The position numbers and the translations under genes are program-made. Shown piece after piece: positions 45,171-64,000 of a stretch of 64,000 nt of DNA. Position 1 is the first letter of the stretch. Each line of letters opens with the position of its first letter. The notes beneath the pieces are model-generated. The model saw only the letters and a list, made by a program, of their open reading frames with translations, ran no database searches and was not told the origin of the DNA. The DNA comes from Bacteroidota bacterium (GTDB lineage Bacteria > Bacteroidota > Ignavibacteria > Kryptoniales > JAKASW01), in NCBI GenBank assembly GCA_023381615.1, contig JAMCQL010000075.1, forward strand, positions 5,500 to 69,499, read 5' to 3'.

Positions 45171-45415
<245 letters not shown>

Positions 45416-46508: not shown

Positions 46509-46543
46509 GCTATCAGCAAGATTGCCATGAGCTATTACAATCC

Positions 46544-46736
46544 TGAACCCCGAACCAAGAACTACGAACTCTGAACTTCGGACTCTTTGCCCTTTGCTCC
46601 ATGCGCTATGCCATTTCACCCTCGAGCCTTGAACATTCAACTTTGAACTTTTATCACTCCGAACTCTGAACCTTGAACCACGAACCAAAAACTCGGAACG
46701 TTGAACATCTCAACCCCGAACATCGGACCCTGAACG
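46544..46736 (+). repeat. long heptamer tract (interrupted by a TTGCCCTTTGC word block), no gmd stub after it
   Basis: Read directly. Confidence 0.8.
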
Positions 46737-46860
46737 ATCTGACTTCTGGCTTCTTGTGCATATGAGCTATAACCTATGATTCATGACCTGTACTCACTTT
46801 TCAAGTCCGGCAATTGCTTGGGTTGGTTGAAAAATATGATTTGAAGTTGGAGGATGATTG

Positions 46861-47130
46861 ATGTCTAGACGTTTTGTTCATAGAAAGGACTACCACATTA
46901 ATATATTTTATAGCGAAGATGATGGTGGTTACATTGCTGACATTCCTGATTTAACGCACTGCTCTGCATTCGGTAAAACTGCCGATGAAGCTTTGGCGGA
47001 ATTGCTTGTGGCAAAAGATGCTTGGCTTGATGCTGCCCGAAAGAATAAAAAGCCGATTCCATCGCCCAGGTACAGACCGGTGCTTTATCAATTGAAACGT
47101 GTGGCGGTCAAGAGATCCGTAATTCATTGA
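46861..47130 (+). CDS. HicB-like antitoxin, orphan
   Basis: YHINIFYSEDDGGYIADIPDLTHCSAFGKTADEALAEL. Confidence 0.6.
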   Translation: MSRRFVHRKDYHINIFYSEDDGGYIADIPDLTHCSAFGKTADEALAELLVAKDAWLDAARKNKKPIPSPRYRPVLYQLKRVAVKRSVIH

Positions 47131-47611
47131 ATAAGTTCTCTCATGAGGAGACCGCACGGTGGGGACACGTGAGCCAATGAACCATCTTGCTTCTGACCTC
47201 TGACCTCTGACTTTGCGTCATAGAGACGTGGACGAAAAGTCCCGCCATTGAATTTTTCTCTGTGGCTCTCTGTGTCTTCTCGGTGTCCCTCTGTGAAATT
47301 GCTCTTTTATTACACAGAGTTCCACTGAGAATCACGGAGTTCCACAGAGATAACAGGTTTTCGGCCACGTCTCTAGGCGCATCAGCTCGACGAGTCGACC
47401 TACCTACGGCCTACGGCTCGACGAGTCGACCTACGGTCTCGTAGATACGGTCTCGTAGAGAGTCATCGACCTTTGGAGGACTGAGCCCCTGCTTCCTCTA
47501 TCACCTATGAGCTATCTGCTATTACCTGCTATCCATAGCCAGACATGCTGGTGAAGAAGGATTTTTGATCACAGCCTATCCGGCGGACAAAGTGAAGGAA
47601 GGAGATGAAAT

Positions 47612-47824
47612 ATGGACAAAGTGAAGCTCTATTATAACAGGGAATCGGATACGATGGATATTTGGTTTGATGACCCTGCTGAAGAAACTTCGAGCGAAGA
47701 AGCAGGCGATGGGACGATACTGAAGAAGAACAAGAAGGGGCTCGTGATAGGAGTTGAGAAGTTGTATGTCACCAAAATGCTCGGAATAAGTCAGCCATTG
47801 CCTGTGGAGGTCGTTGTTTCCTGA
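47612..47824 (+). CDS. DUF2283-family protein (only a C-terminal scrap of a DUF4258-like gene upstream)
   Basis: YYNRESDTMDIWF...GLVIGVEKL; upstream scrap GFLITAYPADKVKEG at about 47555-47605. Confidence 0.7.
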   Translation: MDKVKLYYNRESDTMDIWFDDPAEETSSEEAGDGTILKKNKKGLVIGVEKLYVTKMLGISQPLPVEVVVS

Positions 47825-48080
47825 GGCTTGCCATAGTTTGAGCCCAGCATACCCTTACCTCACTTCCGGCTTTTGTTTCCAGCATCAAGTATCCGGCATC
47901 AAGCATCTTGCCCTATGCCCTATGCGCTCTGCTTCGACACCTTGAACCCTGAACTCTGAACCCCGAACCCCGAACCTCTCACGCTTTGCCCTCTGCCCCA
48001 TACTCTCTGCTTTTCACCCAGGATTCCGAGCTTTGCCCCTTGAACCCTATGCGCCTTGCTCCGTTAAATGGTGTTGAGTC

Positions 48081-48365
48081 TTGGACTGCTCAGAGGTAAT
48101 ATTTAGTAGACATGCGGTGCAACAAATGTTCTCGAGGAGAATCGGAAAAGAGGATGTTCTTCAGATTATCAAGACAGGAGAGGTGATTATCAGTTATCCG
48201 GATGACACTCCTTTTCCCAGCAGTCTTGTCCTTGGATTTGTGGGAGATAGGCCGATACATGTGGTGATTGCAACGGTTGAATTGACAGGCAGATGCGTGG
48301 TCGTCACGGCATATGAGCCTGACGAAAGCATTTGGGAAAAAGATTTTAGAAGGAGGAAGCCATGA
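48081..48365 (+). CDS. DUF4258-like toxin
   Basis: IFSRHAVQQMFSRRIGKEDVLQII...VVVTAYEPD; TTG start. Confidence 0.75.
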   Translation: MDCSEVIFSRHAVQQMFSRRIGKEDVLQIIKTGEVIISYPDDTPFPSSLVLGFVGDRPIHVVIATVELTGRCVVVTAYEPDESIWEKDFRRRKP

Positions 48366-48607
48366 AGTGTGTATTTTGTAAACTGGGTGAAACGAGGCCT
48401 GGAAATGTGACTGTGACGTTGTCGCGAAAGCCTGCAGATTCCGGACGTGAGGAAAGTCTGGTTGTGTTGAAGAATGTGCCGGCGGAGGTGTGTGAGAATT
48501 GTGGCGAGTATTATCTAAATGAAACTGTGACCGATGCGGTGTTGAGGCGTGGTGAGGATGCTGCACGTAACAATGCTGAAATCGAAGTACTACAATTTGC
48601 GGCTTGA
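48362..48607 (+). CDS. YgiT-type (MqsA-like) zinc-finger antitoxin
   Basis: CVFC...VCENCGEYYLNE. Confidence 0.8.
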   Translation: MKCVFCKLGETRPGNVTVTLSRKPADSGREESLVVLKNVPAEVCENCGEYYLNETVTDAVLRRGEDAARNNAEIEVLQFAA

Positions 48608-48652
48608 TAAGGGGGATTGGCGTGCGGGTGAGCTAGCGGAGCGGCAAGGTGA

Positions 48653-49095
<443 letters not shown>

Positions 49096-49130
49096 ATCTC
49101 TGGGAAGACTGGCGCAGAGGGAGGGCGGGC

Positions 49131-49547
49131 ATGAAGATTACTAAGTTTGAAGAAATCGAGTCGTGGAAAGAGGCGAGGACTTTGACGAGCAGCATATACA
49201 ACTTGACCCGGCAGTCGGGGTTCTCTAAAGATTACGGCCTCAAGGACCAAATACAGCGTGCCTCCGTTTCGATTATGGCAAACATAGCTGAAGGTTTCGA
49301 TGCAGGGACCAATAAAGGCTTCATAAGTTTCCTGAATTATGCATATCGCTCCGCGTCTGAAGTCCAGTCGTTGCTTTACGTTGCTCTGGATCAAAGCTAC
49401 ATCACGGAAGACGCCTTTCGAACGAATTATGATGATGCTGCGACGATTAAAAAACTTATTGGGGGGCTAATCAAATATCTCGAGTCATTCGACGGCAAAG
49501 CGCGACGTAAGCCCTTGCAACCACGCACCAAGAACCATGAACCTTGA
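49131..49547 (+). CDS. four-helix-bundle protein (23S rRNA intervening-sequence protein family)
   Basis: MKITKFEEIESWKEAR...QIQRASVSIMANIAEGF...RSASEVQSLLYVA. Confidence 0.85.
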   Translation: MKITKFEEIESWKEARTLTSSIYNLTRQSGFSKDYGLKDQIQRASVSIMANIAEGFDAGTNKGFISFLNYAYRSASEVQSLLYVALDQSYITEDAFRTNYDDAATIKKLIGGLIKYLESFDGKARRKPLQPRTKNHEP

Positions 49548-49863
49548 GCACTGAACCCCGAACATGGAACACCTGAGAGGCGATTACCCTCAGTTCTATA
49601 ACGAGTACTTTGCGGCGAGGCAGATCAAGGACGCGGGGATGAGGCACAGACCGGCAGAGCCGGCTCCGCCGCCAGCGCAGAAGTGAGGATGATCCAGGAT
49701 ACAAGGGTGATATAGATATAAGTGACCGTCATCTTAAAGATGACGGTCACTTATGCTTCGGATGTGATTGCGTGTTTGAAAGTAAAGGATTTAAGAACAT
49801 TGTGACACGGAGGCACGCCGCACTGGATTTGACTATTCAAGTGGCGCGAATCAAAACCTCGGG

Positions 49864-50163
49864 ATGGGTCAGCAGACATCGGCCACTAAAAGTATCCCGG
49901 AGCTCTTCAGAGATGCCGACGAGATCATCTACGAAGATATAAACGGTCTCATGGAACATGTCGAAGAGGACTACCCGGACCTGTATGCCCAGTTCGACGA
50001 GGCGAAGAAGATGGAACCATTAGCCGCATGGTCACATCACGACGAGTTGAAAAGTGTTGAAGGTCTTATCGTACTGCGTTACTTTAACGGCAAGGATTAT
50101 TTGAGATGTATAGGCATTATGGAGAAGATGAATAGTATGGAAGGGAATCAGGATGACATATAA
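49864..50163 (+). CDS. hypothetical protein
   Basis: Track ORF only. Confidence 0.3.
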   Translation: MGQQTSATKSIPELFRDADEIIYEDINGLMEHVEEDYPDLYAQFDEAKKMEPLAAWSHHDELKSVEGLIVLRYFNGKDYLRCIGIMEKMNSMEGNQDDI

Positions 50164-50371
50164 GGTAGTAATAACATACGACTCCGAATATGAAGGTTAC
50201 GTGGTGGACGTGCCGGAACTTAACGGCTGTATGAGTGAGGGAAAGACTCTCGATGAAGCACTCAGCAATGTGAAGGACGCGATCAAAGGTTGGCTCTACG
50301 TCGAAAGCAAGCATGGTCGTGCAGGGATTGCCCATATTCAAGACATCCTTGTGGGAGAGGTAACAATCTGA
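50153..50371 (+). CDS. hicB: HicB-family antitoxin
   Basis: YKVVITYDSEYEGYVVDVPELNGCMSEGKTLDEALSNVKDAI. Confidence 0.75.
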   Translation: MTYKVVITYDSEYEGYVVDVPELNGCMSEGKTLDEALSNVKDAIKGWLYVESKHGRAGIAHIQDILVGEVTI

Positions 50372-50620
50372 TTGGGTGTTCTCTCAAACATTTCGGGTAG
50401 GGATGCTGTAAAGATTTTCTGTAAGTTCGGGTATGTCGTTGATCATCAGACAGGAAGCCATATAATCTTGTACCATTGAGCCATAGGCTCATCAGCCTTT
50501 GGCTGAGAAACCAGGCCCACATTGTCAATACCTAACCACAAGGAAATTGCACCCGGATTGCTGAGGTCTCAGATAAGAAAGAGTGGTTTGAGTATTGAAG
50601 AGTTTTTGAAGTTTAGATGA
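50372..50620 (+). pseudogene. hicA: HicA-family toxin disrupted by a 38-nt palindromic element and a further frameshift
   Basis: ...RDAVKIFCKFGYVVDHQTGSHIILYH*[TGAGCCATAGGCTCATCAGCCTTTGGCTGAGAAACCAGG]PTLSIPNHKEIAPGLLRSQIRK... Confidence 0.6.
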
Positions 50621-50979
50621 ATTGAGCCCGACTGGTTACCGGTTTTTTCCCCGTTTACTCCTTACCGGTTCCTACGAGTCAAGATATACAAGGGCATCTC
50701 TAATAATTCTATGGACAAAGAATTTACACAGAGTTACACAGAGAAAAGATTTGAGTTTCACAGGGAAACAAATATTCTCCGTTACGAGGTCGATGACTCG
50801 TCCACGACCCTTCGGGTCGATAGACCCGTTGGGACTCGTCGAGCCGTAGGCCTATCGGGCCGACGGCTCGGCTCATCGAGTCGCAGGCCTCGTAGAGGAG
50901 ACAGGGAGAAAGGCGGGATGAAGTGGAAAGGTTAGACTTAAATTGCTATACTTGATGGAGAACGATAAAGGAGCATGAG

Positions 50980-51234
50980 ATGGAAGCGAAGTTGATCATC
51001 CCCGATTCCGTAGTGCGAGCAATTCGTTTGCCGGAAGAAAGGATACAGGGTGAATTGTTAAAAGAATTAGCTGTTTCCTTATATGAACAAGGGATCTTAT
51101 CATTTGGAAAGGCAAGAGAACTGGCCCAGCTCGGGAAATATGAATTCGGGAAATTATTAGGCGAACGGGAAATATTGAGACATTACGGAGATGAAGAGTT
51201 AAGTGATGACATAATATATGCCCGCGGTCAGTAA
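50980..51234 (+). CDS. UPF0175-family antitoxin
   Basis: ELLKELAVSLYEQGILSFGKARELAQL. Confidence 0.75.
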   Translation: MEAKLIIPDSVVRAIRLPEERIQGELLKELAVSLYEQGILSFGKARELAQLGKYEFGKLLGEREILRHYGDEELSDDIIYARGQ

Positions 51235-51268
51235 TACTTCTCCTATGAAAGGCATGAGAGTGAGATGA
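51218..51268 (+). pseudogene. 16-codon stub of a DUF3368/PIN-like toxin
   Basis: MPAVSNTSPMKG... then stop; overlaps the UPF0175 stop as in intact pairs. Confidence 0.35.
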
Positions 51269-51337
51269 TACCTATTACAGTCCATGCGACAACACGTCAA
51301 CAAATAAACTTCCGATTGAAAACAGGAAGGTTTACCA

Positions 51338-51565
51338 GTGAGTAAGATGAAAATGAAATATTTCAAGGATGAGGATATTCTTCATCTCGCCATAACTGAT
51401 GAGGTCGAGGCCAAGAGTGTCGAGCTCAGCCCGAACGTTACGGCCGAAGTAAACGAAAAGGGCGATTTAATAGGTATAGAGATACTTGAGGCAAGTTCGT
51501 TTATTCGTGATTCGATACTGGAGTCATCTCAAGCCAAATTACTCGAGCTCAAACAGGCCGTTTAG
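51338..51565 (+). CDS. DUF2283-family protein, orphan
   Basis: KYFKDEDILHLAI...GDLIGIEILEAS. Confidence 0.75.
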   Translation: MSKMKMKYFKDEDILHLAITDEVEAKSVELSPNVTAEVNEKGDLIGIEILEASSFIRDSILESSQAKLLELKQAV

Positions 51566-51736
51566 TGCCCGAAGGAAAGTCCGGGACCCGAAGAAATAAT
51601 GGTTCATGGCATGGATTACCGAATTGTCGGATTACCTGATCCGCAAATTCTTCAATTCGCCAATCCGTAGGAGCGGTTTCCTGAGAAGCGATGCTTTGTT
51701 ACATTATCAGGCGAAGAAAATATCGAGGAGACAAGT

Positions 51737-51949
51737 ATGGAGTACACAGTAGTTTTGCACAAGGCGGAAGAGGGTGGCTACTGGGCAGAGGTTCCCGCTC
51801 TGGAAGGCTGTTTTTCTCAAGGGGAGACTGTGGAAGAGAGCATGGTGAATATTAGGGATGCCATCGGATCTCACCTAATGGCCCTAAAATCGGAGGGACG
51901 GAAACTGCCTGAGGATCAGGTAATGATAGTCAGCCATGTTGCTGTATGA
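51737..51949 (+). CDS. hicB: HicB-family antitoxin
   Basis: YTVVLHKAEEGGYWAEVPALEGCFSQGETVEE. Confidence 0.8.
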   Translation: MEYTVVLHKAEEGGYWAEVPALEGCFSQGETVEESMVNIRDAIGSHLMALKSEGRKLPEDQVMIVSHVAV

Positions 51950-52167
51950 GCAGAAGCCTTTATGGAATCAAAGGTCAAGATGCGGTCAAGGCTTTCATAC
52001 GGGCAGGCGGCATTGAAAAACCGGGGAAGGGAGATCACGTCAATATTAAAATGCCCAACGGTATGATTGTAACGATCCCCGGTAACAGGGAACTGAAGAT
52101 TGGCTTGCTGAAAAGTGCCATCCGAAAAGCAGGGTTGAGCGAACAAGAATTTCTCGATTTATTGTGA
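51946..52167 (+). CDS. hicA: HicA-family toxin (intact)
   Basis: GQDAVKAFIRAGG...GDHVNIKMPNGMIVTIPGNRELKIGLLKSAIRKAGLSEQEF. Confidence 0.8.
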   Translation: MSRSLYGIKGQDAVKAFIRAGGIEKPGKGDHVNIKMPNGMIVTIPGNRELKIGLLKSAIRKAGLSEQEFLDLL

Positions 52168-52256
52168 CTCCCATTTCATTGATGGAATAGATTACCGGAT
52201 TATCGTATTTATCGGGTTACCGAATTCTCAAATTCGAAAATCCAAAAATTCGTTAA

Positions 52257-52636
<380 letters not shown>

Positions 52637-52801
52637 AGATGTGGCCGAAAACCCAACTCCAAAAGATTGAACCGCAAAGGACGCAAAGGATGCGCAAAGG
52701 ACACGAAGAAAAGAATTGTTTTTGCAATGAAACGTCCTTTGCGAACTTTGCGCCGACTTCGCGCTCTTTGCGGTTAGGCTTTTCGGCCGCATCTCTATGA
52801 C

Positions 52802-52944
52802 TGTTTGCTGAAGGTTGGACTGAGAGGCAGGTCCTTGAGAACTATCCCACTTTATCATCCGAGAGCCTGCGAGCGGTTTTCTCCTTTGCGATGGAGTGCA
52901 TGCGTGAGGAGTCGGTGTATACGATACCGGGCGGGACAGCGTAA
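52802..52944 (+). pseudogene. 3' fragment of a DUF433 gene (paralog of 60478..60768)
   Basis: AEGWTERQVLENYPTLSSESLRAVFSFAMECMREESVYTIP. Confidence 0.6.
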
Positions 52945-53012
52945 TGAAATTCTTGGCGAACGAGAATTTTCCTTTTTTTAGTATTGGCCTTCTGGTTGCC
53001 CAGCTCTTTTGA
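52944..53012 (+). pseudogene. 22-codon stub of the DUF5615 partner
   Basis: MKFLANENFPFFSIGLL... then stop. Confidence 0.5.
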
Positions 53013-53061
53013 TTTCGCGTTACAGCAGGTAAGGTTGAAGCTGAAAATCAAGCGATGACGC

Positions 53062-53394
53062 TTGAAGCTCAAAGAAACTGTGGTGGATATACAGAACATC
53101 ATTGATTCGATACGGCGTAATCGCATTCGGATTACCGACCACGCAGACGAAGAAGCACAAGCAGACCGTTTGTCCTTTGATGAAATTTTCTTCAGCGTCC
53201 TGCGAGGAGAAATTATCGAAGACTATCCAGCAGATAAACCTTATCCGAGTTGTTTAATTTATGGTGATAGTTTTACAGGTGAGCCAATTCACAGTGTGTG
53301 GGCATGGAACGTTGAAACAAGATGGGCTGTGCTGATCACGGTGTACCGCCCTGATCCCAAACGCTGGATGGATTGGCGCACAAGGAGGAAGTGA
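53062..53394 (+). CDS. DUF4258-like toxin
   Basis: IRITDHADEEAQADRLSFDEI...VLITVYRPD. Confidence 0.75.
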   Translation: MKLKETVVDIQNIIDSIRRNRIRITDHADEEAQADRLSFDEIFFSVLRGEIIEDYPADKPYPSCLIYGDSFTGEPIHSVWAWNVETRWAVLITVYRPDPKRWMDWRTRRK

Positions 53395-53636
53395 TGAAAA
53401 CGTTCGAGCAATGTCCGGTTTGTGGTGGTGAGTTGGTTGAGAAAGAAGTGGAGAAGCTCCTCAGGGGCGGAGTGCATACGGCGGTATTTAGAGTGCAAGC
53501 TGACGTATGCCTGAGATGTGGAGAGCGATTATATTCGGCTGAAACAGTCAGGCGCTTCGAGCAAATCAGGCAGAAGCTGGAAAAGCGGGAGGTCGCGGAG
53601 TTTCAGCCACTAGGACAAACCTTCGAGGTAGTGTAG
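53394..53636 (+). CDS. YgiT-type zinc-finger antitoxin
   Basis: CPVCGG...VCLRCGERLY; TGATG overlap with the upstream gene. Confidence 0.8.
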   Translation: MKTFEQCPVCGGELVEKEVEKLLRGGVHTAVFRVQADVCLRCGERLYSAETVRRFEQIRQKLEKREVAEFQPLGQTFEVV

Positions 53637-53857
53637 ATTGTCAGAAGCTGGGTTGGATGATTAAGAGTGCAGAAGACAGATGTTCGACATCCAGGGTACA
53701 CCTCAAACTTTGAACTCTGAACCCTGAACTTTCAACCCCGAACATTGAACCCTCTTGCTTCTGACATCTGACTTCCGATTTGTGACATCTGTCTTCCGCC
53801 CTTTGCCCGGAGTTTATCCCGCTTGACGAGAAAGTCACTCCGCAATGGAAGCACACA

Positions 53858-54094
53858 TTGAAGTTCACTAAATACTTTGAGGGGATGCGCAGTCGCCCAG
53901 ACCGAGGCATAATCAAGAAAGAGTGGATACAACAGGTCATCGATACTCCCGTGAGGGAGGTCGTTCAGAAGGATGGCCGAATCCGTCTGTGGGCACCCAT
54001 TGAGGAAATGGGGGGTAGGTTCTTACGTGTTATATTGCTTGAGGATCGCGAAACAGTCCACAATGCTTTCTTCGATCGGAGGTTTAGATTATGA
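53858..54094 (+). CDS. small toxin-like protein upstream of DUF2283 (family uncertain)
   Basis: Position and size. GRIRLWAPIEEMGGRFLRVILLEDRETVHNAFFDRRF is recalled from similar gene pairs. Confidence 0.45.
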   Translation: MKFTKYFEGMRSRPDRGIIKKEWIQQVIDTPVREVVQKDGRIRLWAPIEEMGGRFLRVILLEDRETVHNAFFDRRFRL

Positions 54095-54288
54095 AGATAA
54101 AATACTTTCAGGATACCGATACTCTCTATATTGAATTTCGGGAAAAGGAAATAGTGGAGACGAAGGATCTGGATGAGGATACCTTGCTGGACATCGACCA
54201 AGATGGAAATATCTGCGCAATTACCGTCGAACATGCTAAGGAGCGAACGAACATCCCACAATTTTCTTTTGAGCAGATCGCAGCTTGA
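54091..54288 (+). CDS. DUF2283-family protein
   Basis: KYFQDTDTLYIEF...GNICAITVEHA. Confidence 0.8.
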   Translation: MKIKYFQDTDTLYIEFREKEIVETKDLDEDTLLDIDQDGNICAITVEHAKERTNIPQFSFEQIAA

Positions 54289-54311
54289 TTGCTGCTTCGA
54301 TCTCCAAGCCC

Positions 54312-54432
54312 GTACCCCGACCCGACAACTACGAACTCTAAACGCAGGCCTCCTAACCCTGAACCCCGAACCTTGAACCCCGAACCACGAACTCCGAACC
54401 CAGAATCCCGAACCAAGAACAGCGAACCTGAA
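54312..54432 (+). repeat. heptamer tract
   Basis: GAACCCCGAACCTTGAACCCCGAACCACGAACTCCGAACCCAGAATCCCGAACCAAGAACAGCGAACC. Confidence 0.8.
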
Positions 54433-54630
54433 ACAGGAGAACCGGAGAAAGGGTCTACGGCTCGACGAGCCGTCAACGACCCTATCGGGTCGCAGACCCG
54501 TAGGGAGCCGTCGACCTCGTAGAGGAGAAGCGGAGAAGTTAAGAGGGATTACTTTTGGATATGCGTGCGGGGTTGTATATGATTGATGGGTTTGGTTATG
54601 TTGTTGCCTGTCAAAGAGGAAAGGACTAGA

Positions 54631-54843
54631 ATGAATCGAGAACAAGTCGAAGAAATATTCAGTGCCTTGAACGGACTGCCATCCGAAAAAGTCACGGAGG
54701 TCAAGGATTTTGTTCTATTTCTAAAGGAGCAGTACGGTTTCTGTAAGACGGTCCATGAAGGGGACTCGTGGAGCCAGGAGGATATCGACGACCTCACAAA
54801 GGCGGTTTTGAATTACGCCGATGCGGACGAACGGCAACCGTGA
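54631..54843 (+). CDS. DUF2281-like antitoxin
   Basis: LPSEKVTEVKDFVLFLKEQ. Confidence 0.55.
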   Translation: MNREQVEEIFSALNGLPSEKVTEVKDFVLFLKEQYGFCKTVHEGDSWSQEDIDDLTKAVLNYADADERQP

Positions 54844-55172
54844 TGGTCGAACCGGGCGACGTTGTTACCGTAGATTTCCCAGGGACACTGGGAACCAAAC
54901 GACGTCCTGCTGTGGTGGTTTCGACAGAAACGTACCATGCGTCTCGCCCTGATGTTATTCTTGCGCTCCAGACAAGTCAGACCACAAAAGCAGCAAGCCC
55001 GACGGATTACATTTTGCAGGATTGGAGCATCGCTGGGCTGCGGAACGCCTCAGCTTTGCGTTCTTTTCTCGCAACTGTCCCTGCTTCAAGTGTTTCTGTA
55101 GTAGGGCACCTGTCAAGCCGTGACTGGCAAGAAGTACAAGCACGTTTACGAATAGCGTTGGCCGTTGCCTGA
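54843..55172 (+). CDS. PemK/MazF-family toxin
   Basis: PGDVVTVDFPGTLGTKRRPAVVVS; TGATG overlap with the upstream gene. Confidence 0.8.
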   Translation: MVEPGDVVTVDFPGTLGTKRRPAVVVSTETYHASRPDVILALQTSQTTKAASPTDYILQDWSIAGLRNASALRSFLATVPASSVSVVGHLSSRDWQEVQARLRIALAVA

Positions 55173-55605
55173 AGAACCTCGATGTTAAATTCCGACTCTC
55201 GTTACTGATTACTGTCTCTTGCCATCTTTCCGCTGACTGCTAAATGCTGATATGTTTTAACTATTCACTTTTCATTTTTCACTGCTCCATCAGCGAGGCC
55301 TAACCCGCCTCCAGTTGTTCCTTTGCCTCGGTCACAGAAGCAATAGAGCGCGTGAATGGTAGACAGTAGGTAGGGGGTAAGTAGTGACCTGCACTGCTAT
55401 GGCAAGTCACGCGGCGGCCGTGGGCTTAGCAAAGATGCAGGAAGGGCAGGAAACGGTGAAAGGACCCATTTGGTGGGTTCAGACATGACCAGACGCCAGT
55501 GGAGTGAGAGATTCTGATTATGGGAAGGACGTCTTAGATGTGGAATAGTCAATGCTGGTATGATAACTTTATTTTTTTATATGATGAAAAGGAAGCGTTA
55601 AGGTC

Positions 55606-55881
55606 ATGATGGAAACAAAGACAGCATATAAGTATATCGTGAAAAAATACGGGGATAATGAGCCTGTAATCGAAAACACGAGGATTAGTGTTAGAGACAT
55701 TGTGGAACAATGGAGACTCGGCTCAACTCCGGAAGAGATTACGATGGCATACCCGCATATAAATCTGTCTCAGGTTTTTGAGGCATTGGCTTATTATCAA
55801 GATAATATGGGCGAGATCGAGCATTTCATTGAAATAAACAAAGTCTCGGAGAGTCTTAGTGGTAAGCCTTTATCTCGATGA
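55606..55881 (+). CDS. DUF433-family protein (near-identical copy of 46031..46306)
   Basis: One aa difference (RISVRD here, RICVRD in the other copy). Confidence 0.8.
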   Translation: MMETKTAYKYIVKKYGDNEPVIENTRISVRDIVEQWRLGSTPEEITMAYPHINLSQVFEALAYYQDNMGEIEHFIEINKVSESLSGKPLSR

Positions 55882-56083
55882 GGATATTCACGGGCTTTTG
55901 GCGGTATTGTTGAGGGCAAGAAACATATCGGTTGAGACTACGCAAGAAAGCAGAATGCTCGGCAAAGAAGATCGGGAACAACTGGAGTATGCGACGAAGA
56001 GAGGCGCTGCCATTGTGACCCACAATAGGGTCGATTTCGAGAAGTTATTTGCAGATTATACTGATATGGGGCATAAGCTATGA
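55859..56083 (+). CDS. DUF5615-family protein (identical translation to 46284..46508)
   Basis: Track ORFs have the same sequence. Confidence 0.7.
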   Translation: MVSLYLDEDIHGLLAVLLRARNISVETTQESRMLGKEDREQLEYATKRGAAIVTHNRVDFEKLFADYTDMGHKL

Positions 56084-56116
56084 GCTATCAGCAAGATTGC
56101 CATGAGCTATTACAAT

Positions 56117-56214
56117 CCCGAACCCCGAACTACGAACTAAGAACCCCTAACTTCGAACCCCGAACCTTGAACCTCGTACCACGAACTCCGAACCCAGAAC
56201 CCCGAACCACTAAC
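56117..56214 (+). repeat. heptamer tract abutting a gmd stub
   Basis: ...GAACCCCGAACCTTGAACCTCGTACCACGAACTCCGAACCCAGAACCCCGAACCACTAAC-ATG. Confidence 0.85.
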
Positions 56215-56277
56215 ATGAAAAAAGCTTTGATCACTGGCATCACCGGTCAGAACGGTTCCTACTTTGTTCAATGTTGA
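56215..56277 (+). pseudogene. gmd: gmd 5' stub (17 codons)
   Basis: [16 protein letters not shown] then FVQC*. Confidence 0.75.
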
Positions 56278-56324
56278 ACGTTTATAATGGGTTTTTGATA
56301 TTATGCTAATGCAGGAAAGGAACT

Positions 56325-56612
56325 ATGCCAATTCCAGTAGAAGTTAGACCGCTTGATAGATATCGGTTGTGGGTGAAGTACTCAGACGGGACTGAGGGCG
56401 TTGCCGATTTGTCGGACCTTGTTGGCAAGGGAGTCTTTGCACTCTGGAATGATTATGAAGAATTTAAGAAAGTTCATATAGGCGCGAGCGGCGAAATTGC
56501 CTGGAGCGAGCAGATCGACGTGTGTCCGGACGCAATCTATCTTAAGATTAGCGGCAAGAAACCCGAAGACTTGTTTCCGCGATTGAAAGAAATGACTAGT
56601 CAGCGTGCCTGA
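56325..56612 (+). CDS. DUF2442-family protein
   Basis: LWVKYSDGTEGVADLS...IAWSEQIDVCPDAIY. Confidence 0.8.
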   Translation: MPIPVEVRPLDRYRLWVKYSDGTEGVADLSDLVGKGVFALWNDYEEFKKVHIGASGEIAWSEQIDVCPDAIYLKISGKKPEDLFPRLKEMTSQRA

Positions 56613-56865
56613 AATCAGCCGCTTCTTTGGCATTGTCATCAGGATGTACTTTGACGATCATTTGCCGCCACACTTCCACGCAGAGTACGGTGAATATAAG
56701 GCAGTTGTGGAAATTCAGAGCCTGATGGTTATTGGCGGCTACTTTCCACCGCGCGCATTGGGATTGGTTGTTGAATGGGCAACGCTACATCGTGACGAGC
56801 TGCTTGAAGTCTGGGACAGGGCCGTCAAACTGCAGCCCTTACCGAAGATTCCGCCACTTACATAG
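56605..56865 (+). CDS. DUF4160-family protein
   Basis: MPEISRFFGIVIRMYFDDHLPPHFHAEY. Confidence 0.85.
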   Translation: MPEISRFFGIVIRMYFDDHLPPHFHAEYGEYKAVVEIQSLMVIGGYFPPRALGLVVEWATLHRDELLEVWDRAVKLQPLPKIPPLT

Positions 56866-57257
56866 CAATAGGACACTGGCGGATGTCAGGGTGCGGCACA
56901 GGGACTACTTGATAACGCTGAGCACGCACCCTCGCATATTTAACCTTGAAAAATTTGCTGTGAGCTATCAACTAAATCAACCACGAATCCGTCTCTCCGA
57001 GCCGAGCGCTTCGACGCGAGGTCCCGCCATAAATGATCCGGACGGGCCGGATCTTCGACAACGGACCCCGGACTAAGGACCGTTTGATGCAAAGTGGTTC
57101 TGCAGGTGGATTATTTTAGTGATTGTTCCTGTTCCGGAGAGAAGCTTTCAGAAATTGAATCTGTGATTGTGCAACCGCAGCCTTTCAACTCCAAACTCAG
57201 CACCCAGAACCTTCTAGCGTGAGACAACGAATCAGGCAATCTGAGGGAGTGATGTAA

Positions 57258-57509
57258 GTGAAGGACAAAGTGCTGAGCACGGTGCTTTCCGGGTTGTCGG
57301 ATAAGAACGTAAGATTTGAGGATTTGAGAAAGTTGCTTTTGAGACTGAATTTTACCGAGAGGAACAAAGGAGATCACCACATATTTCATAAGGAACATGT
57401 GGCTGAGATCATAAACCTGCAACCTCTCAATGATGGCAAGGCGAAAGCGTATCAGGTAAAGCAGGTAAGAAATCTGTTGCTGAAATACAAACTGCATAAT
57501 GAGGGATGA
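57258..57509 (+). CDS. hicA: HicA-family toxin (intact)
   Basis: GDHHIFHKEHVAEIINLQPLNDGKAKAYQVKQVRNLLLKY; GTG start. Confidence 0.8.
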   Translation: MKDKVLSTVLSGLSDKNVRFEDLRKLLLRLNFTERNKGDHHIFHKEHVAEIINLQPLNDGKAKAYQVKQVRNLLLKYKLHNEG

Positions 57510-57510
57510 A

Positions 57511-57720
57511 ATGCACAGGTATGAGCTCGTTATTTACTGGAGTATGGACGACGCATCTTTTGTGGTTGAAGTACCTGAACTTCCAGGGTGCATGGCTGAC
57601 GGGAAGACCTATAATGAAGCGGTGAAGAATGCGGAAGTTGCGATCGATGAATGGATCGATACAGCAGAAGAATTAAAGAGAGAGATACCCAAACCTAAAG
57701 GCAAACTGGCGTACGCATGA
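57511..57720 (+). CDS. hicB: HicB-family antitoxin
   Basis: YELVIYWSMDDASFVVEVPELPGCMADGKTYNEAVKNAEVAI. Confidence 0.8.
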   Translation: MHRYELVIYWSMDDASFVVEVPELPGCMADGKTYNEAVKNAEVAIDEWIDTAEELKREIPKPKGKLAYA

Positions 57721-58703
57721 TTCGTCTTCCGTATGACTATCTGTATTTCCATGCGGCTTTGTCGAAGCCTGAACGGCGAACCACGAAGCGGGATCGCTAT
57801 GCCCCGTGCACCCCGTCCCGAACTTCGAACCAGGAACTAAGAACCTTTCACTGCTTACCACTATCACCTATGAGCCCAATTGCCATCAGCTAATTCAACC
57901 CCGAACCACGCACTACGAACTCTGAACTTCGAACTCTATGCGCCATGCTCTTTGCTCTTCAACCCTGAACACACAACATGCAAGGATTAAGTTTGTGTGA
58001 AAAAGATCATAGGAGTTGGAAAACGCTCACAAAGCTCTTGAAGTCTTCCTGCGGCTCTATTATATTGAGGCCAGAGATTTTTTTTGAGCGTCGGTTGACC
58101 AATCAAGCTTACTTGCAGAGAGCACCGGAAGAAACTCTGTCGCTATGTGCCATGAGCGAAAGCAGCTGATAGTCGCAGATCCGCCTCCGGTGGACAGTTA
58201 GCTCATAACTGATAGGAAGAAAAGCCTGTTTTGGTTTCCTGCGGTTGCTATGAGCCATGAGCCACAACCTATGAGCTACCCTGTGAGTGAGTCACCGCAA
58301 GTCGGGATCGCGACAAGCGCGAATGGCGAAGCCGACCGAAGGGAGGTGGCGCTGAAAGCGCCACTGGGTCCGATGGGACTCAGATGGCGAAGCTGTGAGA
58401 AGAGCGTGGTGCAGAGAGCATGGAGCAAAGAGCATAGAGCGGGAATGAGGAGTTCGGAGGATCGTGATTTCGAAGTGCTGTCTCCTCCCGCATTGCGAGA
58501 AGAGACGAGCCGCGACTGAGTCGGGCGAATTTCGGATCGGTAATCAAATTAATCCTATAAATCCTGGTCGAAATCATGAGAATCCCGGTCCAAGATGCAA
58601 GGTGCCGGCGGCGAGCATGAATCGGGTACCCCGGATCCTCTTACGGATCACTTCGAACCTTAAATTGAGAACCTTTGAATCCGCGGCAAAATGTTGAGGG
58701 GCA

Positions 58704-58967
58704 GTGAAGAAAGTCGAGATCATTCCAGTCGCGCAAAGAAAAGCAGAGAAACGGGGAATAAAAGTCGAATGGATAACTGATGCAGTTACAAATCCTGCTC
58801 AAGTAGTAAGTGGCTATGGCGGAAGAAGGGTCGCGCATAAGTTGATTTGGATTGACGAAAAGGAATATCTTCTGAGAGTCGTTTATGAGGACGACAACGA
58901 GGTGTTTACCGTCGTGACAGCTTATATTACGTCACAGATAAAACGTTACTGGAAGGAGGAAGAGTAG
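58704..58967 (+). CDS. DUF4258-like toxin
   Basis: AQRKAEKRGIKVEWI...YLLRVVYEDDNEVFTVVTAY. A 3' scrap of a paralog lies at 33125-33158. Confidence 0.65.
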   Translation: MKKVEIIPVAQRKAEKRGIKVEWITDAVTNPAQVVSGYGGRRVAHKLIWIDEKEYLLRVVYEDDNEVFTVVTAYITSQIKRYWKEEE

Positions 58968-59186
58968 ATGAAAATAGAGTATGATCCAAAGCATGATCTT
59001 TTGAACATTGAGTTTATCCCGGGTGAGAGTATCGGCGAGTCCAGCGAAACCGATGGAGTGATTATCGATTACGCAAAGGACGGCAGGATAGTCGCTATTG
59101 AGATTTTGGATGCGGGAAAGCGGACGACCAGAAACCCGCTCGATCTGCTTGACCTTTCCATAGTGAAGGAGAAAGCAACTGTATGA
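58968..59186 (+). CDS. DUF2283-family protein
   Basis: MKIEYDPKHDLLNIEF...GRIVAIEILDAG. Confidence 0.85.
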   Translation: MKIEYDPKHDLLNIEFIPGESIGESSETDGVIIDYAKDGRIVAIEILDAGKRTTRNPLDLLDLSIVKEKATV

Positions 59187-59370
59187 TTATGATAATGTTT
59201 GGCTTAATGCCGGAACCGGTCGGCGGCAAAATCTCCTCTTTGACTCGCCGCCAGGAATAAGGCCTCGAAATCTCAGAACACTTCGAACCATGAACCCTGA
59301 ACATGGAACCCTGGATCTCTCATGTGGAGTCTACCCCGTTTTCAACGGGGCTCTCTGCTCCATGCGCCCA

Positions 59371-59498
59371 ACCACGAACCACGCACCAAGAACCATGAAC
59401 CTTGAACACCGAACCCTGAACATTGAACGCTGAACATCTAACCCTGAACCCCGAACCTTGAACCTCGTACCACGAACTTCGAACTCCGAACCACTAAC
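59371..59498 (+). repeat. heptamer tract (~17 units) abutting a gmd start
   Basis: ACCACGAACCACGCACCAAGAACCATGAACCTTGAACACCGAACCCTGAACATTGAACGCTGAAC...GAACCACTAAC-ATG. Confidence 0.85.
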
Positions 59499-60082
59499 AT
59501 GAAAAAAGCCCTCATCACCGGTATCACCGGCCAGGACGGCTCATATCAAGCCGAACTTTTACTCGAGAAGGGATACGAAGTCCACGGGATTATCAGAAGG
59601 TCCAGCTCTTTCAATACCGGACGTATTGATCACCTCTACAATAATCCTGAGATAAACGGCAAGACGTTTTTCCTCCACTACGGTGACGTCACCGATACGA
59701 GCAATTTGAACAGGCTTCTTGAGAAAGTGGAGCCCGATGAGATATACAACCTGGCAGCCCAGAGTCATGTCAAAGTCTCCTTTGAAGTGCCTGAATATAC
59801 CGCCGAGGTAGATGCCGTTGGCACTCTTCGTTTCCTCGACGCGATAAGAGAGACAGGACTTAAAACGAAATTTTACCAGGCATCGACGAGTGAACTTTTT
59901 GGCAAAGTCCAGGCTGTCCCCCAGAATGAGAAGACTCCGTTTTATCCGAAGTTGATATGTTGATAGGTGATGCTTCGAAAGCAAAAGAGAAGCTCGGCTG
60001 GAAGCCGGAGATAAAGTTTGAACAATTGGTTAGCCTGATGGCGAAAGCCGATTTCGATGAGGTGAGGAAACGAGGTTTTTAG
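59499..60082 (+). pseudogene. gmd: gmd with internal deletion (~150 N-terminal + 44 C-terminal codons, out of frame)
   Basis: ...EKTPFYP|[44 protein letters not shown]. Confidence 0.85.
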
Positions 60083-60232
60083 TCTCTTACAAGTAAAGTC
60101 TGTGAAATAAGACCAAGAAATTGCACACCAAAAAAACACGGAAAGAACTGATGACCACAGATGAAATCTCTTTTTTAAATGATAAAAACCCGTGAGAATC
60201 TGTTTCATCTGTGTTATCCGTGTGCCATCTTT

Positions 60233-60292
60233 GGTTTCGGTTCAGCCGAGTAGGAGTTCTGGGTTCTTCGTTCGAAGATATCGGTTCGAAGT
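60233..60292. repeat. reverse-orientation heptamer tract downstream of the last gmd remnant
   Basis: GGTTTCGGTTCAGCCGAGTAGGAGTTCTGGGTTCTTCGTTCGAAGATATCGGTTCGAAG. Confidence 0.65.
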
Positions 60293-60477
60293 CGGACGTT
60301 TCCCGAGTGTGGAGCCTACAGGGGTCTGCGACAAAAATATAAAACACATAGGCACATAGGGCACATTAACGAATAAATCTATGTTTTCTAATGTGCCTAT
60401 GTGGTTAATCTATTGCTTTTTACAAATTTGTCGCAGACCCAGCCTACAGGTGTTATTGGAGATTTCAATGTAGTTTT

Positions 60478-60768
60478 ATGATATTACAGGTGCGTGAAAG
60501 GATGGTGAAGGAAACGATGGCGGATGTAGATTGGAGAAAACACATCAATTCTGATCCGAATGTTTTGGTCGGCAAACCGGTAGTCAAGGGAACCAGACTA
60601 TCCGTAGAATTTCTTCTAGGTCTGTTCGCTGAAGGTTGGACTGAGAGGCAGGTCCTTGAAAACTATCCCACTTTATCATCCGAGAGCCTGCGGGCAGTTT
60701 TCTCTTTTGCCACAGAATGCATGCGTGAAGAGTCTGTGTATACCATACCGACCAGTACGACGCGATGA
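60478..60768 (+). CDS. DUF433-family antitoxin-like protein (start uncertain, ATG 60502 or 60517 possible)
   Basis: INSDPNVLVGKPVVKGTRLSVEFLLGLFAEGWTERQVLENYPTLS. Confidence 0.8.
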   Translation: MILQVRERMVKETMADVDWRKHINSDPNVLVGKPVVKGTRLSVEFLLGLFAEGWTERQVLENYPTLSSESLRAVFSFATECMREESVYTIPTSTTR

Positions 60769-61127
60769 ATCTACTGGCAAATGAGAATTTCCCTCTTCTC
60801 AGTGTTCGGTTACTTCGCACTGCGGGCCACGATGTGGCAAGTGTGATCGAGGATAACCCGGGAGCCAGCGACGAGGATGTCTTGAAACGAGCAAGTCAGG
60901 AGAAGCGGGTCGTGTTGACATTCGATAGAGACTATGGTGAGTTAGTTTATCGCTACAAGTCATTCCCGCCGTCCGGCATCCTGTATTTCCGTTTTGATCC
61001 ATCGGCACCGGAGGAACCTGCTCAAATCCTCTTGACCATCATGGAGGGAGGTAAGGTGGTGATCCCGGGTAAGTTCACAGTAATCGAGAGGGGCAGAATA
61101 CGACAGAGAGCACTTCTCAAGACATAG
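60765..61127 (+). CDS. DUF5615-family (PIN-like) toxin-like protein
   Basis: LLANENFPLLSVRLLRTAGHDV...VVLTFDRDYGEL. Confidence 0.8.
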   Translation: MNLLANENFPLLSVRLLRTAGHDVASVIEDNPGASDEDVLKRASQEKRVVLTFDRDYGELVYRYKSFPPSGILYFRFDPSAPEEPAQILLTIMEGGKVVIPGKFTVIERGRIRQRALLKT

Positions 61128-61176
61128 GTAGTCGTTAATTTGTTAGTTATTAGTTCAAAGGAGGGCTGAAGTCGGG

Positions 61177-61542
61177 ATGAAGATTACTAGGTTCGAAGAT
61201 ATCGAAGTCTGGAAAGAAGGGAGGCTCTTGGTCGTTGACGTTTACAAAGCTTTGTCGAAGGTGAAAGACTTTGGATTCAGGGATCAGATACAGAGAGCTG
61301 CCATCTCCATTACATCCAATATCGCCGAAGGATTTGACAGAGGAAGCAATAAGGAGTTCATTCAATTCTTGACCATTGCGCGCGGATCAGCCTCGGAAGT
61401 TAAGAGCGAGGCATACAATGCACTGGATCTGGGGTACATTGATTCCAAAACCTTTGATGACTTGTCTGCAAGATCCCTTTCGGTGTCGAACCTGATAAAC
61501 GGCTTCATAAGATACCTGCGAAATTCCGGTCGACAACGTTGA
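61177..61542 (+). CDS. four-helix-bundle protein (23S rRNA IVS family)
   Basis: MKITRFEDIEVWKEGR...QIQRAAISITSNIAEGF...GSASEVKSEAY. Confidence 0.85.
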   Translation: MKITRFEDIEVWKEGRLLVVDVYKALSKVKDFGFRDQIQRAAISITSNIAEGFDRGSNKEFIQFLTIARGSASEVKSEAYNALDLGYIDSKTFDDLSARSLSVSNLINGFIRYLRNSGRQR

Positions 61543-61545
61543 CTT

Positions 61546-61614
61546 CTCAACCTTCAACCTTGAACTTTGAACTCTGAACCCTGAACTTTCAACCCCGAAC
61601 AATGAACCCTGAAC
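61546..61614 (+). repeat. heptamer tract that runs into the fcl start (ATGAACCCTGAAC)
   Basis: A near-identical copy without a gene lies at 53701-53752. Confidence 0.8.
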
Positions 61615-62490
61615 AGAAAATATACGTCGCCGGCCACCGCGGCCTTGTCGGCTCCGCTCTGATGCGTGCTCTTGAGAAAAAAGGGTTTAAGAACCTTGTG
61701 ACCCGCACACATACGGAACTCGACCTCACAGACCAGGCAGCCGTGAAGAAGTTCTTCGAAAGCGAGAAGCCGGAGTACGTGTTCCTCGCGGCGGCGAAAG
61801 TCGGAGGCATACATGCCAACAATACTTATCCGGCCGATTTTATCTACATAAACCTGCAGATTCAAAACAACGTCATCCACAACTCTTATCTATCAGGAGT
61901 AAAGAAACTCTGCTTTCTGGGTAGTTCTTGCATCTATCCGAAGTTCGCACCTCAACCGATGAAAGAGGAGTACCTCCTCGACGGGAAGCTCGAACCAACA
62001 AACGAGCCCTATGCCATCGCTAAAATTGCCGGCATAAAGATGTGCCAGTCGTACAACAGGCAGTACGGTACGAACTTCATCTCGGTCATGCCGACTAATC
62101 TTTACGGTCCTAATGACAACTTCGATCTGGAAAACTCACACGTTCTGGCAGCACTTGTGCGGAAATTCGTCGACGCTAAGCGATCCTCCGCCGACAACGA
62201 ACCCAGAACCCAGAACTCTGAACCGCGAACCACGAACCCAGAACCGTGACTGTTTGGGGAACCGGGACTCCTCGTAGGGAATTCCTGCATGTCGACGACA
62301 TGGCGAGCGCCTGTTTGTTTCTGGTGGAGAACTACGATGACGGCGAGATTGTGAACATAGGAACGGGAGAAGACATTTCTATCAAGGAGTTGGCGGAACT
62401 CATTGCGAAGGAAACCGGCTTTCAGGGTCCAATCCGATACGACAGCTCGCGTCCTGACGGGACACCGAGAAAACTTCTCGACGTCTCGCG
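61602..62490 (+). pseudogene. fcl: GDP-L-fucose synthase, copy 1: frameshifted inside an internal heptamer tract and 3'-truncated
   Basis: [13 protein letters not shown]...YAIAKIAG; TGA 62247-62249 within ...[17 protein letters not shown]; resumes at 62246 ([19 protein letters not shown]) and ends at ...LLDVSR. Confidence 0.85.
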
Positions 62491-63144
62491 GAATATCTCC
62501 TTGATGGCAAGTTGGAACCGACGAACGAGCCTTATGCGATTGCGAAGATCGCGGGCATAAAGATGTGCCAATCGTACAACCGGCAGTACGGGACGAACTT
62601 TATCTCTGTTATGCCCACGAATCTTTACGGGCCGAACGACAACTTCGATCTGGAAAACTCGCACGTTCTGGCAGCACTTGTGCGGAAATTCGTCGACGCT
62701 AAGCGCTCCTCCGCCGACAACGAACCCAGAACCCAGAAGTCTGAACCAAGGACCCCGAACCACGAACCCAGAACCGTCACCGTCTGGGGGACAGGCAAGC
62801 CCAGGAGAGAGTTCCTGCATGTTGATGACATGGCAGAAGCTTGTGTGTTTCTGATGCAGAACTACAACTATAATGATATTGGTGAATTTGTGAATATTGG
62901 AACAGGTGAGGATATCACCATTAAAGACCTTGCAAAACTGATCGCAGAAGAAGCGGGCTTTGAAGGTGGGATTGAGTCGGATACTTCAAAACCAGATGGG
63001 ACACCAAGGAAGTTGCTTGATGTGAGTAGGATAAATGTCCTTGGATGGAAAGCAAAGATTACTTTGCGGGATGGAGTGAGACAGATTGTGGATTTGTATG
63101 AGGAGACGCTGCCGTGTCAGGAGAGAAGCAGTAACCTGAGATGA
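62491..63144 (+). pseudogene. fcl: GDP-L-fucose synthase, copy 2: 5'-truncated diverged allele with the heptamer tract read in frame
   Basis: Restarts at [19 protein letters not shown], out of frame with copy 1, and runs to a normal C-terminus ([20 protein letters not shown]). Confidence 0.85.
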
Positions 63145-63249: not shown

Positions 63250-64000
63250 ATGATAGCTGTTATTTTATGTGGCGGACAAGGGACGCGTATAAGGGATGTT
63301 TCGGAGAGCCTCCCAAAGCCAATGGTGCCGATCGGTGGAAAGCCGATTTTATGGCATATCATGAAAACGTACTCTCATTATGACGTGAAGGAATTTATTC
63401 TTTGTCTTGGATATAATGGGTGGAAGATAAAGGAGTATTTCCTGAATTATCGAACGATAAATAACGATTTCACTGTTAGCGTTGGTGAGCATGGTTCGGT
63501 AGAGTTTCACGATGGCGTTGATGAAGCGGAGTGGAAAGTGACCCTTACCGACACGGGCGATGAGGCGATGACCGGAGCCAGACTCTGGAAAGTTCGCCGG
63601 TACTTGGAAGGCGAAGACAATTTCTGTCTTACTTATGGAGATGGCGTGGCCGACATTGACATCGGGAAATTGATTGAGTCCCACAAAGCGCAGGGTAAAG
63701 TCGGAACAATAACTGCTGTCAGGCCTTCAGGCAGGTTTGGTGAGATGATCCTCGATGGCAGCATGGTCACGCGGTTTAACGAAAAGCCCCAGAGTGAAGA
63801 GGGGTGGATCAACGGCGGCTTCATGGTGTTCGACAATAAGAGAGTCTGGGACTATTTCTGGCCGAGCGATGAATTGATCCTTGAAAGAGAACCGCTTCCT
63901 TCAATGGTGAAGGATAAAGAGCTTGCCGTTTTTCAACATAGAGGATTCTGGACAGGTATGGACACACCTCGTGAGTACCATATTCTCAACCAGATGTGGA
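63250..64000 (+). CDS. rfbF: glucose-1-phosphate cytidylyltransferase, 3'-partial (runs off window end)
   Basis: MIAVILCGGQGTRIRDVSESLPKPMVPIGGKPILWHIM...; open frame to the end of the window. Confidence 0.9.
   Translation, partial: MIAVILCGGQGTRIRDVSESLPKPMVPIGGKPILWHIMKTYSHYDVKEFILCLGYNGWKIKEYFLNYRTINNDFTVSVGEHGSVEFHDGVDEAEWKVTLTDTGDEAMTGARLWKVRRYLEGEDNFCLTYGDGVADIDIGKLIESHKAQGKVGTITAVRPSGRFGEMILDGSMVTRFNEKPQSEEGWINGGFMVFDNKRVWDYFWPSDELILEREPLPSMVKDKELAVFQHRGFWTGMDTPREYHILNQMW

Follow-up and report, generated by a model that had tools for sequence, protein, structure and literature searches.

A probable deletion scar joining two diverged fcl genes in a mosaic polysaccharide locus of a Candidatus Kryptoniota bacterium

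Introduction

How do two diverged copies of fcl, the gene for GDP-L-fucose synthase, come to lie head to tail with neither of them whole, and do they still have a function? The question is raised by a 64,000-nucleotide stretch of DNA from a Bacteroidota bacterium (assembly GCA_023381615.1, contig JAMCQL010000075.1, positions 5,500 to 69,499 of the forward strand). This whole stretch is hereafter the window, and positions are counted from its first letter; the two copies occupy 61602-63144. An earlier note, made from the letters alone, had read the pair as a partial duplication with an internal tract of 7-nt repeats, and had left the choice between a decayed locus and an ON/OFF arrangement for GDP-fucose synthesis. 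Here we compare the locus with public contigs and assemblies. The window represents a genuine haplotype (H1) of a surface-polysaccharide locus that varies between strains of a Candidatus Kryptoniota bacterium, and the pair is probably a deletion scar, in which the loss of 4.25 kb fused two neighbouring, already diverged fcl genes within a mosaic, decayed locus.

Two diverged fcl sequences lie head to tail and neither is intact

The first copy (fclA) spans 61602-62492 on the + strand. Its N-terminal reading frame of 215 amino acids (61602-62249, +) holds the Rossmann motif GxxGxxG and the Ser/Cys, Tyr-x3-Lys and His catalytic residues, including NSHV, which identify it by sequence as a GDP-L-fucose synthase (Fcl/GMER, an extended short-chain dehydrogenase/reductase; E. 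coli structures 1BWS and 1E6U). The frame ends at a TGA (62247-62249) because a tract of tandem heptamers is one unit short. This tract (62199-62247, +) runs out of frame and consists of seven units: GAACCCA, GAACCCA, GAACTCT, GAACCGC, GAACCAC, GAACCCA and GAACCGT. The C-terminal part (62246-62492, +; VTVWGTG...KLLDVSR) is cut about 34 codons short of its natural end; it lies in a continuation open reading frame (ORF; 62246-62560) that carries on the Fcl sequence in the +2 frame up to ...KLLDVSR.

The second copy (fclB; 62491-63144, +) is truncated at its 5′ side. It restarts at 62491 with the same protein sequence that copy 1 has from 61966, beginning at about codon 123 (EYLLDG), and lacks the NADPH-binding Rossmann domain, the Ser/Cys residue and a native start; only YAIAK and NSHV remain of the catalytic motifs. 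Its heptamer tract (62722-62777, +) has eight units and stays in frame, and the protein runs to a normal C-terminus, with the stop at 63144. Thus the uninterrupted ORF of ~305-325 amino acids expected of a functional Fcl is found in neither copy, the first being frameshifted at 62247 and cut at 62492 and the second starting at codon ~123.

When the copies were aligned (blastn), 409 of 534 positions were identical (77%) and the sole gap was 7 nt within the tract, where copy 1 has seven units and copy 2 has eight. These results bear out the basic description given in the earlier note: two diverged fcl sequences head to tail, a TGA in the copy 1 insert with a change of frame at 62246 and a restart at 62491, and an insert that is one 7-nt unit longer in copy 2 and in frame only there. 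Over the 75 codons common to both copies 5′ of the tract the protein is identical and about half of the synonymous sites differ (synonymous divergence, dS, ~0.95). In the C-terminal part nonsynonymous divergence (dN) is ~0.18, and neither copy carries further stops or frameshifts.

The divergence is interrupted by a near-identical patch, likened from the sequence to a recombination or gene-conversion tract, and this too holds: 62114-62215 (+) differs from its partner at 62637-62738 at 3 of 102 nt, compared with 26 of 146 nt just upstream (binomial P = 4e-6, or 8e-6 with third codon positions only). The patch contains identical stretches of 37 and 33 nt and includes the first units of the heptamer tract. 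An exact protein look-up of the 104-aa ORF that spans the junction of the two copies returned no match on record, and the GTDB representative genomes contain no close relative of this fcl, with best matches of 69-70%.

The junction is present in four metagenomes

Four mine-tailings metagenome runs (X1-X4) contain the stretch at 93% of its words, and the read evidence consists of their k=31 contigs (Logan) rather than raw reads. The junction at 62490/62491 is crossed in every one of the four, by contigs covering 62463-62519 in X1 (depth 419) and X2 (depth 23), 62463-62667 in X3 (depth 854) and 62195-62646 in X4 (depth 8.3). X4 is a low-complexity sample in which only the fused haplotype is seen, and its contigs 61572-62224 and 62195-62646 show no mismatch to the window. 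No word shared at the junction is long enough to mislead a de Bruijn assembler. The junction and the window haplotype are therefore real and not a misassembly. Single-copy reads alone would have pointed to two strain alleles assembled in tandem; instead, the junction is deep in four runs and natural, unfused gene ends exist beside it.

These unfused ends were visible as loose ends in the same samples. In X1-X3 one leaves copy 1 after 62492 (TAAATTCACTCGG... / TAAATTCACTCGGATGGAGAGCC) and reads on in frame as RINSLGWRALI, the C-terminal sequence usual for Fcl. Another, seen in X1 and X2, enters copy 2 at 62490 (TCCGAAATTGGCACCTCAGCCAATGAAAGA) and encodes PKLAPQPMKE, normal upstream Fcl sequence. 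The depths suggest fused to unfused ratios of ~60:40 in X1, ~50:50 in X2 and >90:10 in X3, with X4 fused only. In runs of other studies (X6 and X8) fclA has its natural continuation and the junction is absent.

A co-occurring haplotype carries both flanks unfused

The unfused arrangement could be followed on two public contigs from Joint Genome Institute metagenome 3300017831 (L092 and L097), and an independent contig of an NCBI metagenome-assembled genome (MAG; L093) reaches the same branch point. The first 127 nt of L092 are identical to window 62366-62492, after which come the natural fclA C-terminus, five small ORFs, a gene for GDP-mannose dehydratase (gmd) that is intact at 347 aa, and a second fcl (protein P0002). 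The loose end behind 62492 is L092 from position 128 onward, the loose end before 62490 matches L092:4349 exactly, and eleven minor-variant single-nucleotide polymorphisms (SNPs) at 62532-62640 in X1/X2 are exactly the bases of the second fcl of L092. Joining L092 1-127 to 4382 onward, a 4,254-bp deletion from GGA to GGA, recreates window 62366-62567 with a single mismatch over 202 nt. The junction itself (62490-62492, no strand assigned) is this GGA, shared by the 3′ context of fclA and the 5′ context of the second fcl. The signature of a microhomology deletion is thus present: both parental flanks are known, the break has a few letters common to the two sides, and the sister haplotype (H2, represented by L097 and L092) retains the interval.

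L097 corresponds to window 61409-62492 with 0 mismatches, stops at 62492 and overlaps L092 by 127 nt; therefore, the frameshifted fclA belongs to the unfused haplotype too. L093 is 99.94% identical to the window and likewise ends at 62492. Because both natural junction flanks lie unfused, 4.25 kb apart, on a co-occurring haplotype, the pair is best read as a deletion fusion and not as the partial duplication first supposed. Moreover, the missing 34 and 122 codons could not be restored from the fused form without a template, which argues that the fused form is the derived one.

The heptamer tract lies in a variable loop of Fcl

In both copies the heptamers encode an insert of 15-18 amino acids between residues 197 and 198 of E. 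coli Fcl. Among the best 120 Fcl hits, 114 have the standard span of 28 residues from SHV to WGxG, with no heptamer-type insert, and the five closest (P0001, P0002, P0004, P0005 and P0007) have 4-11 extra residues in it. For three of these the DNA was checked (P0001/L002, P0005/L001 and P0007/L091), and the extra residues are GAACYNN units ending GAACCGT-VTVWG. The comparison with relatives that the earlier note had called for therefore finds the insert in the closest of them, at the same loop site, in frame and of variable length. An AlphaFold model placed it in a coil between a helix and a strand, with a predicted local distance difference test score (pLDDT) <50; the model is moderate (mean pLDDT 69, from a 20-row alignment) and was used only for this low-confidence coil. 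The tract occupies an Fcl loop of lineage-variable length.

Unit number also differs between near-identical sequences, with consequences for the frame. In run X7 fclA has eight units (an extra CGAACCA, equivalent to a second GAACCAC) and is in frame; it has seven in the window, X1-X4, X8, L093 and L097. In the P0005 lineage, contig L089 is without one GAACCCC that L088 and L001 contain (the three are otherwise >99% identical), and its gene is split into ORFs of 201 and 89 amino acids. The sequences indicate that frame-breaking losses of one unit arose independently at least twice. Both losses remove one of two identical adjacent units, and at most two identical units adjoin. Programmed -1 ribosomal frameshifting was considered and rejected as a means of reading through: there is no slippery X XXY YYZ heptamer in frame within 61602-62247.

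Two further observations concern fcl in other genomes. L088 differs from L001 and L089 by six clustered synonymous changes at the EEYLLDGK codons (L088 ~730-760), exactly the codons where copy 2 of the window begins, which suggests a small recombination patch at that spot. Inserts in the same loop (E. coli 197/198) also occur in unrelated lineages of other phyla, as CTCAACC-type heptamers in a Nitrospirae MAG, as CCTCAGT-type units in another MAG and as a non-repetitive insert of ~29 amino acids in Flavobacteriia (L086:3001-3969, L037:1213-2166 and L049/L064/L082).

The locus holds no intact gmd or fcl

The window is chromosomal, with Lon, PurF, MutL, AspS and FtsY, and its AspS shares 80% identity with proteins that bear the name Candidatus Kryptoniota. 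The polysaccharide locus begins at 24.6 kb, with ugd, a NusG-like gene and genes for an export protein and a chain-length determinant. Small toxin-antitoxin-type genes follow one another in a long series from 33 to 61 kb; these ~28 kb inside the polysaccharide locus (33000-61600) hold HicAB, DUF4258/DUF2283, DUF433/DUF5615, PemK and AbiEii-like genes and three 23S-rRNA-IVP genes, and DUF433 is duplicated (52794-52929 and 60615-60750, 90% identical). Downstream of fclB, and contiguous with it, a nucleotidyl transferase gene (63250-64000, +; Pfam NTP_transferase) opens a sugar cassette and runs off the window, and the same gene order is found in L002.

Two remnants of gmd were found upstream. 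In remnant 1 (37357-38002, +), positions 1-165 of Pfam GDP_Man_Dehyd are present, the final ~30 codons come next in a different frame, and the GxxGxxG motif contains a 27-nt insert. Remnant 2 (59499-60082, +) has a different internal deletion, keeps profile positions 1-150 and 306-332 of 332, and is shared with L091, L093 and L002. The two are 77% identical and their deletion end-points differ. The truncated N-terminal ORF of remnant 2 (154 amino acids; 59499-59963, L002:5380-5847 and L091:3615-4079) is open in all lineages sharing that internal deletion.

There is no intact gmd or fcl anywhere in the 64 kb of H1, and the one gmd of this locus known to be intact falls within the deleted DNA; therefore, this locus cannot make GDP-L-fucose. 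The fclA/fclB pair most probably has no function and is a decay product rather than a switch. Thus, of the two outcomes that had been envisaged for the pair, it is the decayed locus that is borne out.

A proposed history and its alternatives

The ancestral layout, still seen in H2, would have been: gmd remnant, toxin/antitoxin genes, 23S-IVP gene, fclA, five small ORFs, intact gmd, second fcl and sugar cassette. In a first step, seen directly in the unit counts, the in-frame eight-unit GAACYNN tract of fclA, in the loop before the VTVWGTG strand, lost one of two adjacent identical GAACCAC units, which shifted the frame; the lesion is common to H1 and H2. In a second, reconstructed in part, the two fcl genes may have traded sequence with each other and with further alleles, such that a patch of ~100 nt brought an A-type eight-unit tract into the second fcl, and the 3′ half of that gene, along with the cassette that follows it, gave way to a diverged allele. 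The tract of copy 2 matches the eight-unit fclA tract unit by unit and the second fcl of L092 has only ~2.5 units, so the conversion patch appears to have carried the A-type tract across. In the third step, an illegitimate deletion of 4,254 bp between two GGA triplets would have taken out everything from the final ~34 codons of fclA, through the small ORFs and the intact gmd, to codon 122 of the second fcl, leaving a mimic of a head-to-tail partial duplication. The end-points of this step are placed to the base and its direction follows from parsimony.

Several observations sit uneasily with this history. Copy 2 has no exact parent in the second fcl of L092: identity between them is ~100% at 62490-62567, ~86% at 62568-62640, high again at 62641-62716 and 62776-62815, and ~70% beyond 62830, and the cassettes downstream of the two genes differ. 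At least one further recombination is therefore needed, before or after the deletion. The k=31 contigs cannot show long-range phasing, rare collapsed recombinants or rare tract-length variants. Finally, the gmd remnant has a dN/dS of ~0.04 at dS 0.77 between lineages, which is odd for a dead gene; the fragment is either under selection or repeatedly converted from intact paralogues.

The alternative that fares best, while clearly less probable than deletion of a resident interval, is import of a cassette. Here, a strain with fclA took up the 3′ two-thirds of a foreign fcl together with a nucleotidyl-transferase sugar cassette, the right end recombining homologously downstream and the left end joining illegitimately at the GGA inside fclA, and the 4.25 kb interval was never in the lineage. 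Such an import would account for the 3′ half of copy 2 and the downstream nucleotidyl-transferase gene being only ~70-75% identical to every other allele found, and for the syntenic block of fcl, nucleotidyl transferase and further sugar-modifying genes that recurs in L002. The locus is strongly mosaic within the species: contig L091 matches window 55885-59484 at 100%, and past that point identity falls to 66-90% across gmd, the toxin-antitoxin genes and its one fcl, which is intact. A microhomology of 3 nt fits import equally well. However, the first 78 nt of copy 2, right from the junction, differ by just one SNP from the second fcl resident in the co-occurring haplotype, so that the donor fragment would have to end by chance at that very base, whereas a single deletion in the H2 architecture yields the junction exactly.

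An ON/OFF, phase-variable device for GDP-fucose synthesis, working through slippage of the tract or recombination between the copies, is unlikely. One-unit differences have toggled the frame twice in near-identical backgrounds, and in Haemophilus influenzae phase variation has heptanucleotide simple sequence repeats (SSRs) among its candidate or reported mediators (PMC2651432). The units here are imperfect, however, with no more than two identical neighbours, and the observed losses would have to revert without a template; in X1-X4 no indel in the tract was found in the contigs, which drop rare variants. As to recombination, the identical stretches of the patch could support a RecA crossover, and the earlier note had suggested that one crossover would recreate a single in-frame fcl. 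On paper this is correct: a crossover made in silico upstream of the tract gives an intact chimaera of 339 amino acids that aligns to residues 3-308 of 1BWS (E 1e-108) and retains all columns invariant across 20 aligned Fcl sequences, among them Ser/Cys, Tyr-Lys and His. As a switch it fails, since the collapse is one-way and gmd would still be missing from the 64 kb. Joints offset by 523 nt, as expected of a collapsed single copy, were absent from the contigs of all eight runs, in which rare variants and within-patch crossovers are not visible; a crossover inside the identical patch creates no new 31-mer, and the contigs therefore cannot exclude it. Joints skipping 565, 698, 1119 and 1156 nt do occur, at other offsets, with sides of 30-40 nt in repeats or in diverged fcl of other organisms. 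Within H1, restoring the frame of copy 1 would still leave it without its last ~34 codons, copy 2 would still be without a Rossmann domain and start, and the deletion has removed the intact gmd.

Assembly artefact, with two strain alleles stitched in tandem, is very unlikely. The population is indeed a strain mixture, with a 2-3 fold drop in depth over the locus, 62492 is the exact break point of three other assemblies, and the copies share identical words of 33-37 nt, but against this stand the junction-spanning words at high to modest depth in four independent runs, the mismatch-free contigs of X4 and the lack of a misleading word at the junction. Least credible of all is a true tandem partial duplication of one fcl whose copies diverged later, which has the head-to-tail geometry in its favour and is contradicted by a dS of ~0.95 and a C-terminal dN of ~0.18 reached without further stops or frameshifts in either copy, as well as by the two unfused flanks 4,254 bp apart in L092.

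Heptamers elsewhere in the window

A pattern scan of the window for GAACYNN gave 107 matches, compared with 0.1 expected. From ~33 kb onward the heptamers fill intergenic spaces, almost all on the + strand. One such tract (61549-61614, +; TRF, pattern scan and start-codon distance) runs over the start codon of fclA itself (ATG 61602). It is one of 5 among 21 tracts that end 3-9 nt before an ATG or overlap one, with ends at 43999, 45254, 52428, 59491 and 61614 (window 43968-61614). At the intergenic tracts of 43-61.7 kb contigs break, only 1-nt indels are listed, and tract-to-tract joints have sides of 20-30 nt and are not interpretable.

An identical 38-mer occurs in two of the tracts (53705-53743 and 61562-61600). 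The public contig L095 joins 61610 to 53700, and many other tract-to-tract joints appear in contigs; such joints may reflect true rearrangement from tract to tract or be artefacts of the graph. A 44-nt tandem repeat (52275-52387; 2.6 copies, 84% match) adjoins a heptamer tract. The UDP-glucose 6-dehydrogenase gene ugd (24622-26088) carries in-frame repeat inserts as well: GAACGGC x3.4 at 24966-24989, ATTTCGG x5.3 at 25006-25042 and AAAGGCAC x4.9 at 25818-25856, giving ~50 residues more than family models.

Repeats of this kind have counterparts in other phyla. Cyanobacterial STRR repeats are one set of intergenic heptamer direct repeats. Another is TAACTGA, whose intergenic repeats occur in Beggiatoaceae, Cyanobacteria and Bacteroidetes (PMC4679880). 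Like GAACYNN, TAACTGA repeats are abundant tandem heptamers in one orientation to the downstream gene, often end a few nucleotides short of a start codon, and now and then occur within ORFs at sites that tolerate them. Unlike TAACTGA, the present unit is degenerate, belongs to the phylum Kryptoniota and lies in frame inside conserved enzymes (Fcl and Ugd), not only at protein ends. The paper describing the Kryptonia phylum does not mention heptamer repeats of this kind. It is conceivable, if improbable, that GAACYNN is a genome-wide, strand-specific Kryptoniota element of 5′ leaders that has repeatedly colonised tolerant loops of Fcl and Ugd as hypermutable frameshift sites; if true, this would be a contingency system for surface-glycan variation in an environmental, non-pathogenic phylum.

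Discussion

Loci of mosaic surface polysaccharides offer the closest parallel to the pair described here. Microhomology-mediated deletion and mosaic recombination belong to the evolution of O-antigen and capsule loci, and the present locus shares with them flanks with 100% identity among strains around sugar genes that differ by 13-30%, remnant copies of gmd and fcl, and a microhomology of 3 nt. Nothing essential separates it from them; what is special is that the deletion fused two paralogues nearly in register and so mimicked a partial duplication. The fusion is, on this reading, an ordinary microhomology deletion in a mosaic polysaccharide locus whose history is unusually well recoverable.

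The likeness to SSR contingency loci is more limited. A 7-nt unit, not divisible by 3, sits inside an ORF for a surface glycan, a change of one unit shifts the frame, and unit number varies among close relatives. In contrast to such loci, the fcl tract consists of degenerate units with no long homogeneous array, only losses are seen, and the gene has been truncated as well. Although prone to frameshifts, the tract is too imperfect to support classical phase variation.

For annotators, the locus carries a warning that MAG contigs ending exactly at such junctions, or such pseudogene pairs, reflect real co-existing haplotypes and not misassembly. What had looked like a duplication or a switch becomes a reconstructed history in which a repeat unit was lost, gene conversion took place and a microhomology deletion removed 4.25 kb, with the parental form still present in the same samples. 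This history documents the decay and diversification of a polysaccharide locus in an uncultivated phylum, and indicates that degenerate heptamer repeats can reside in frame within a conserved enzyme and then break it.

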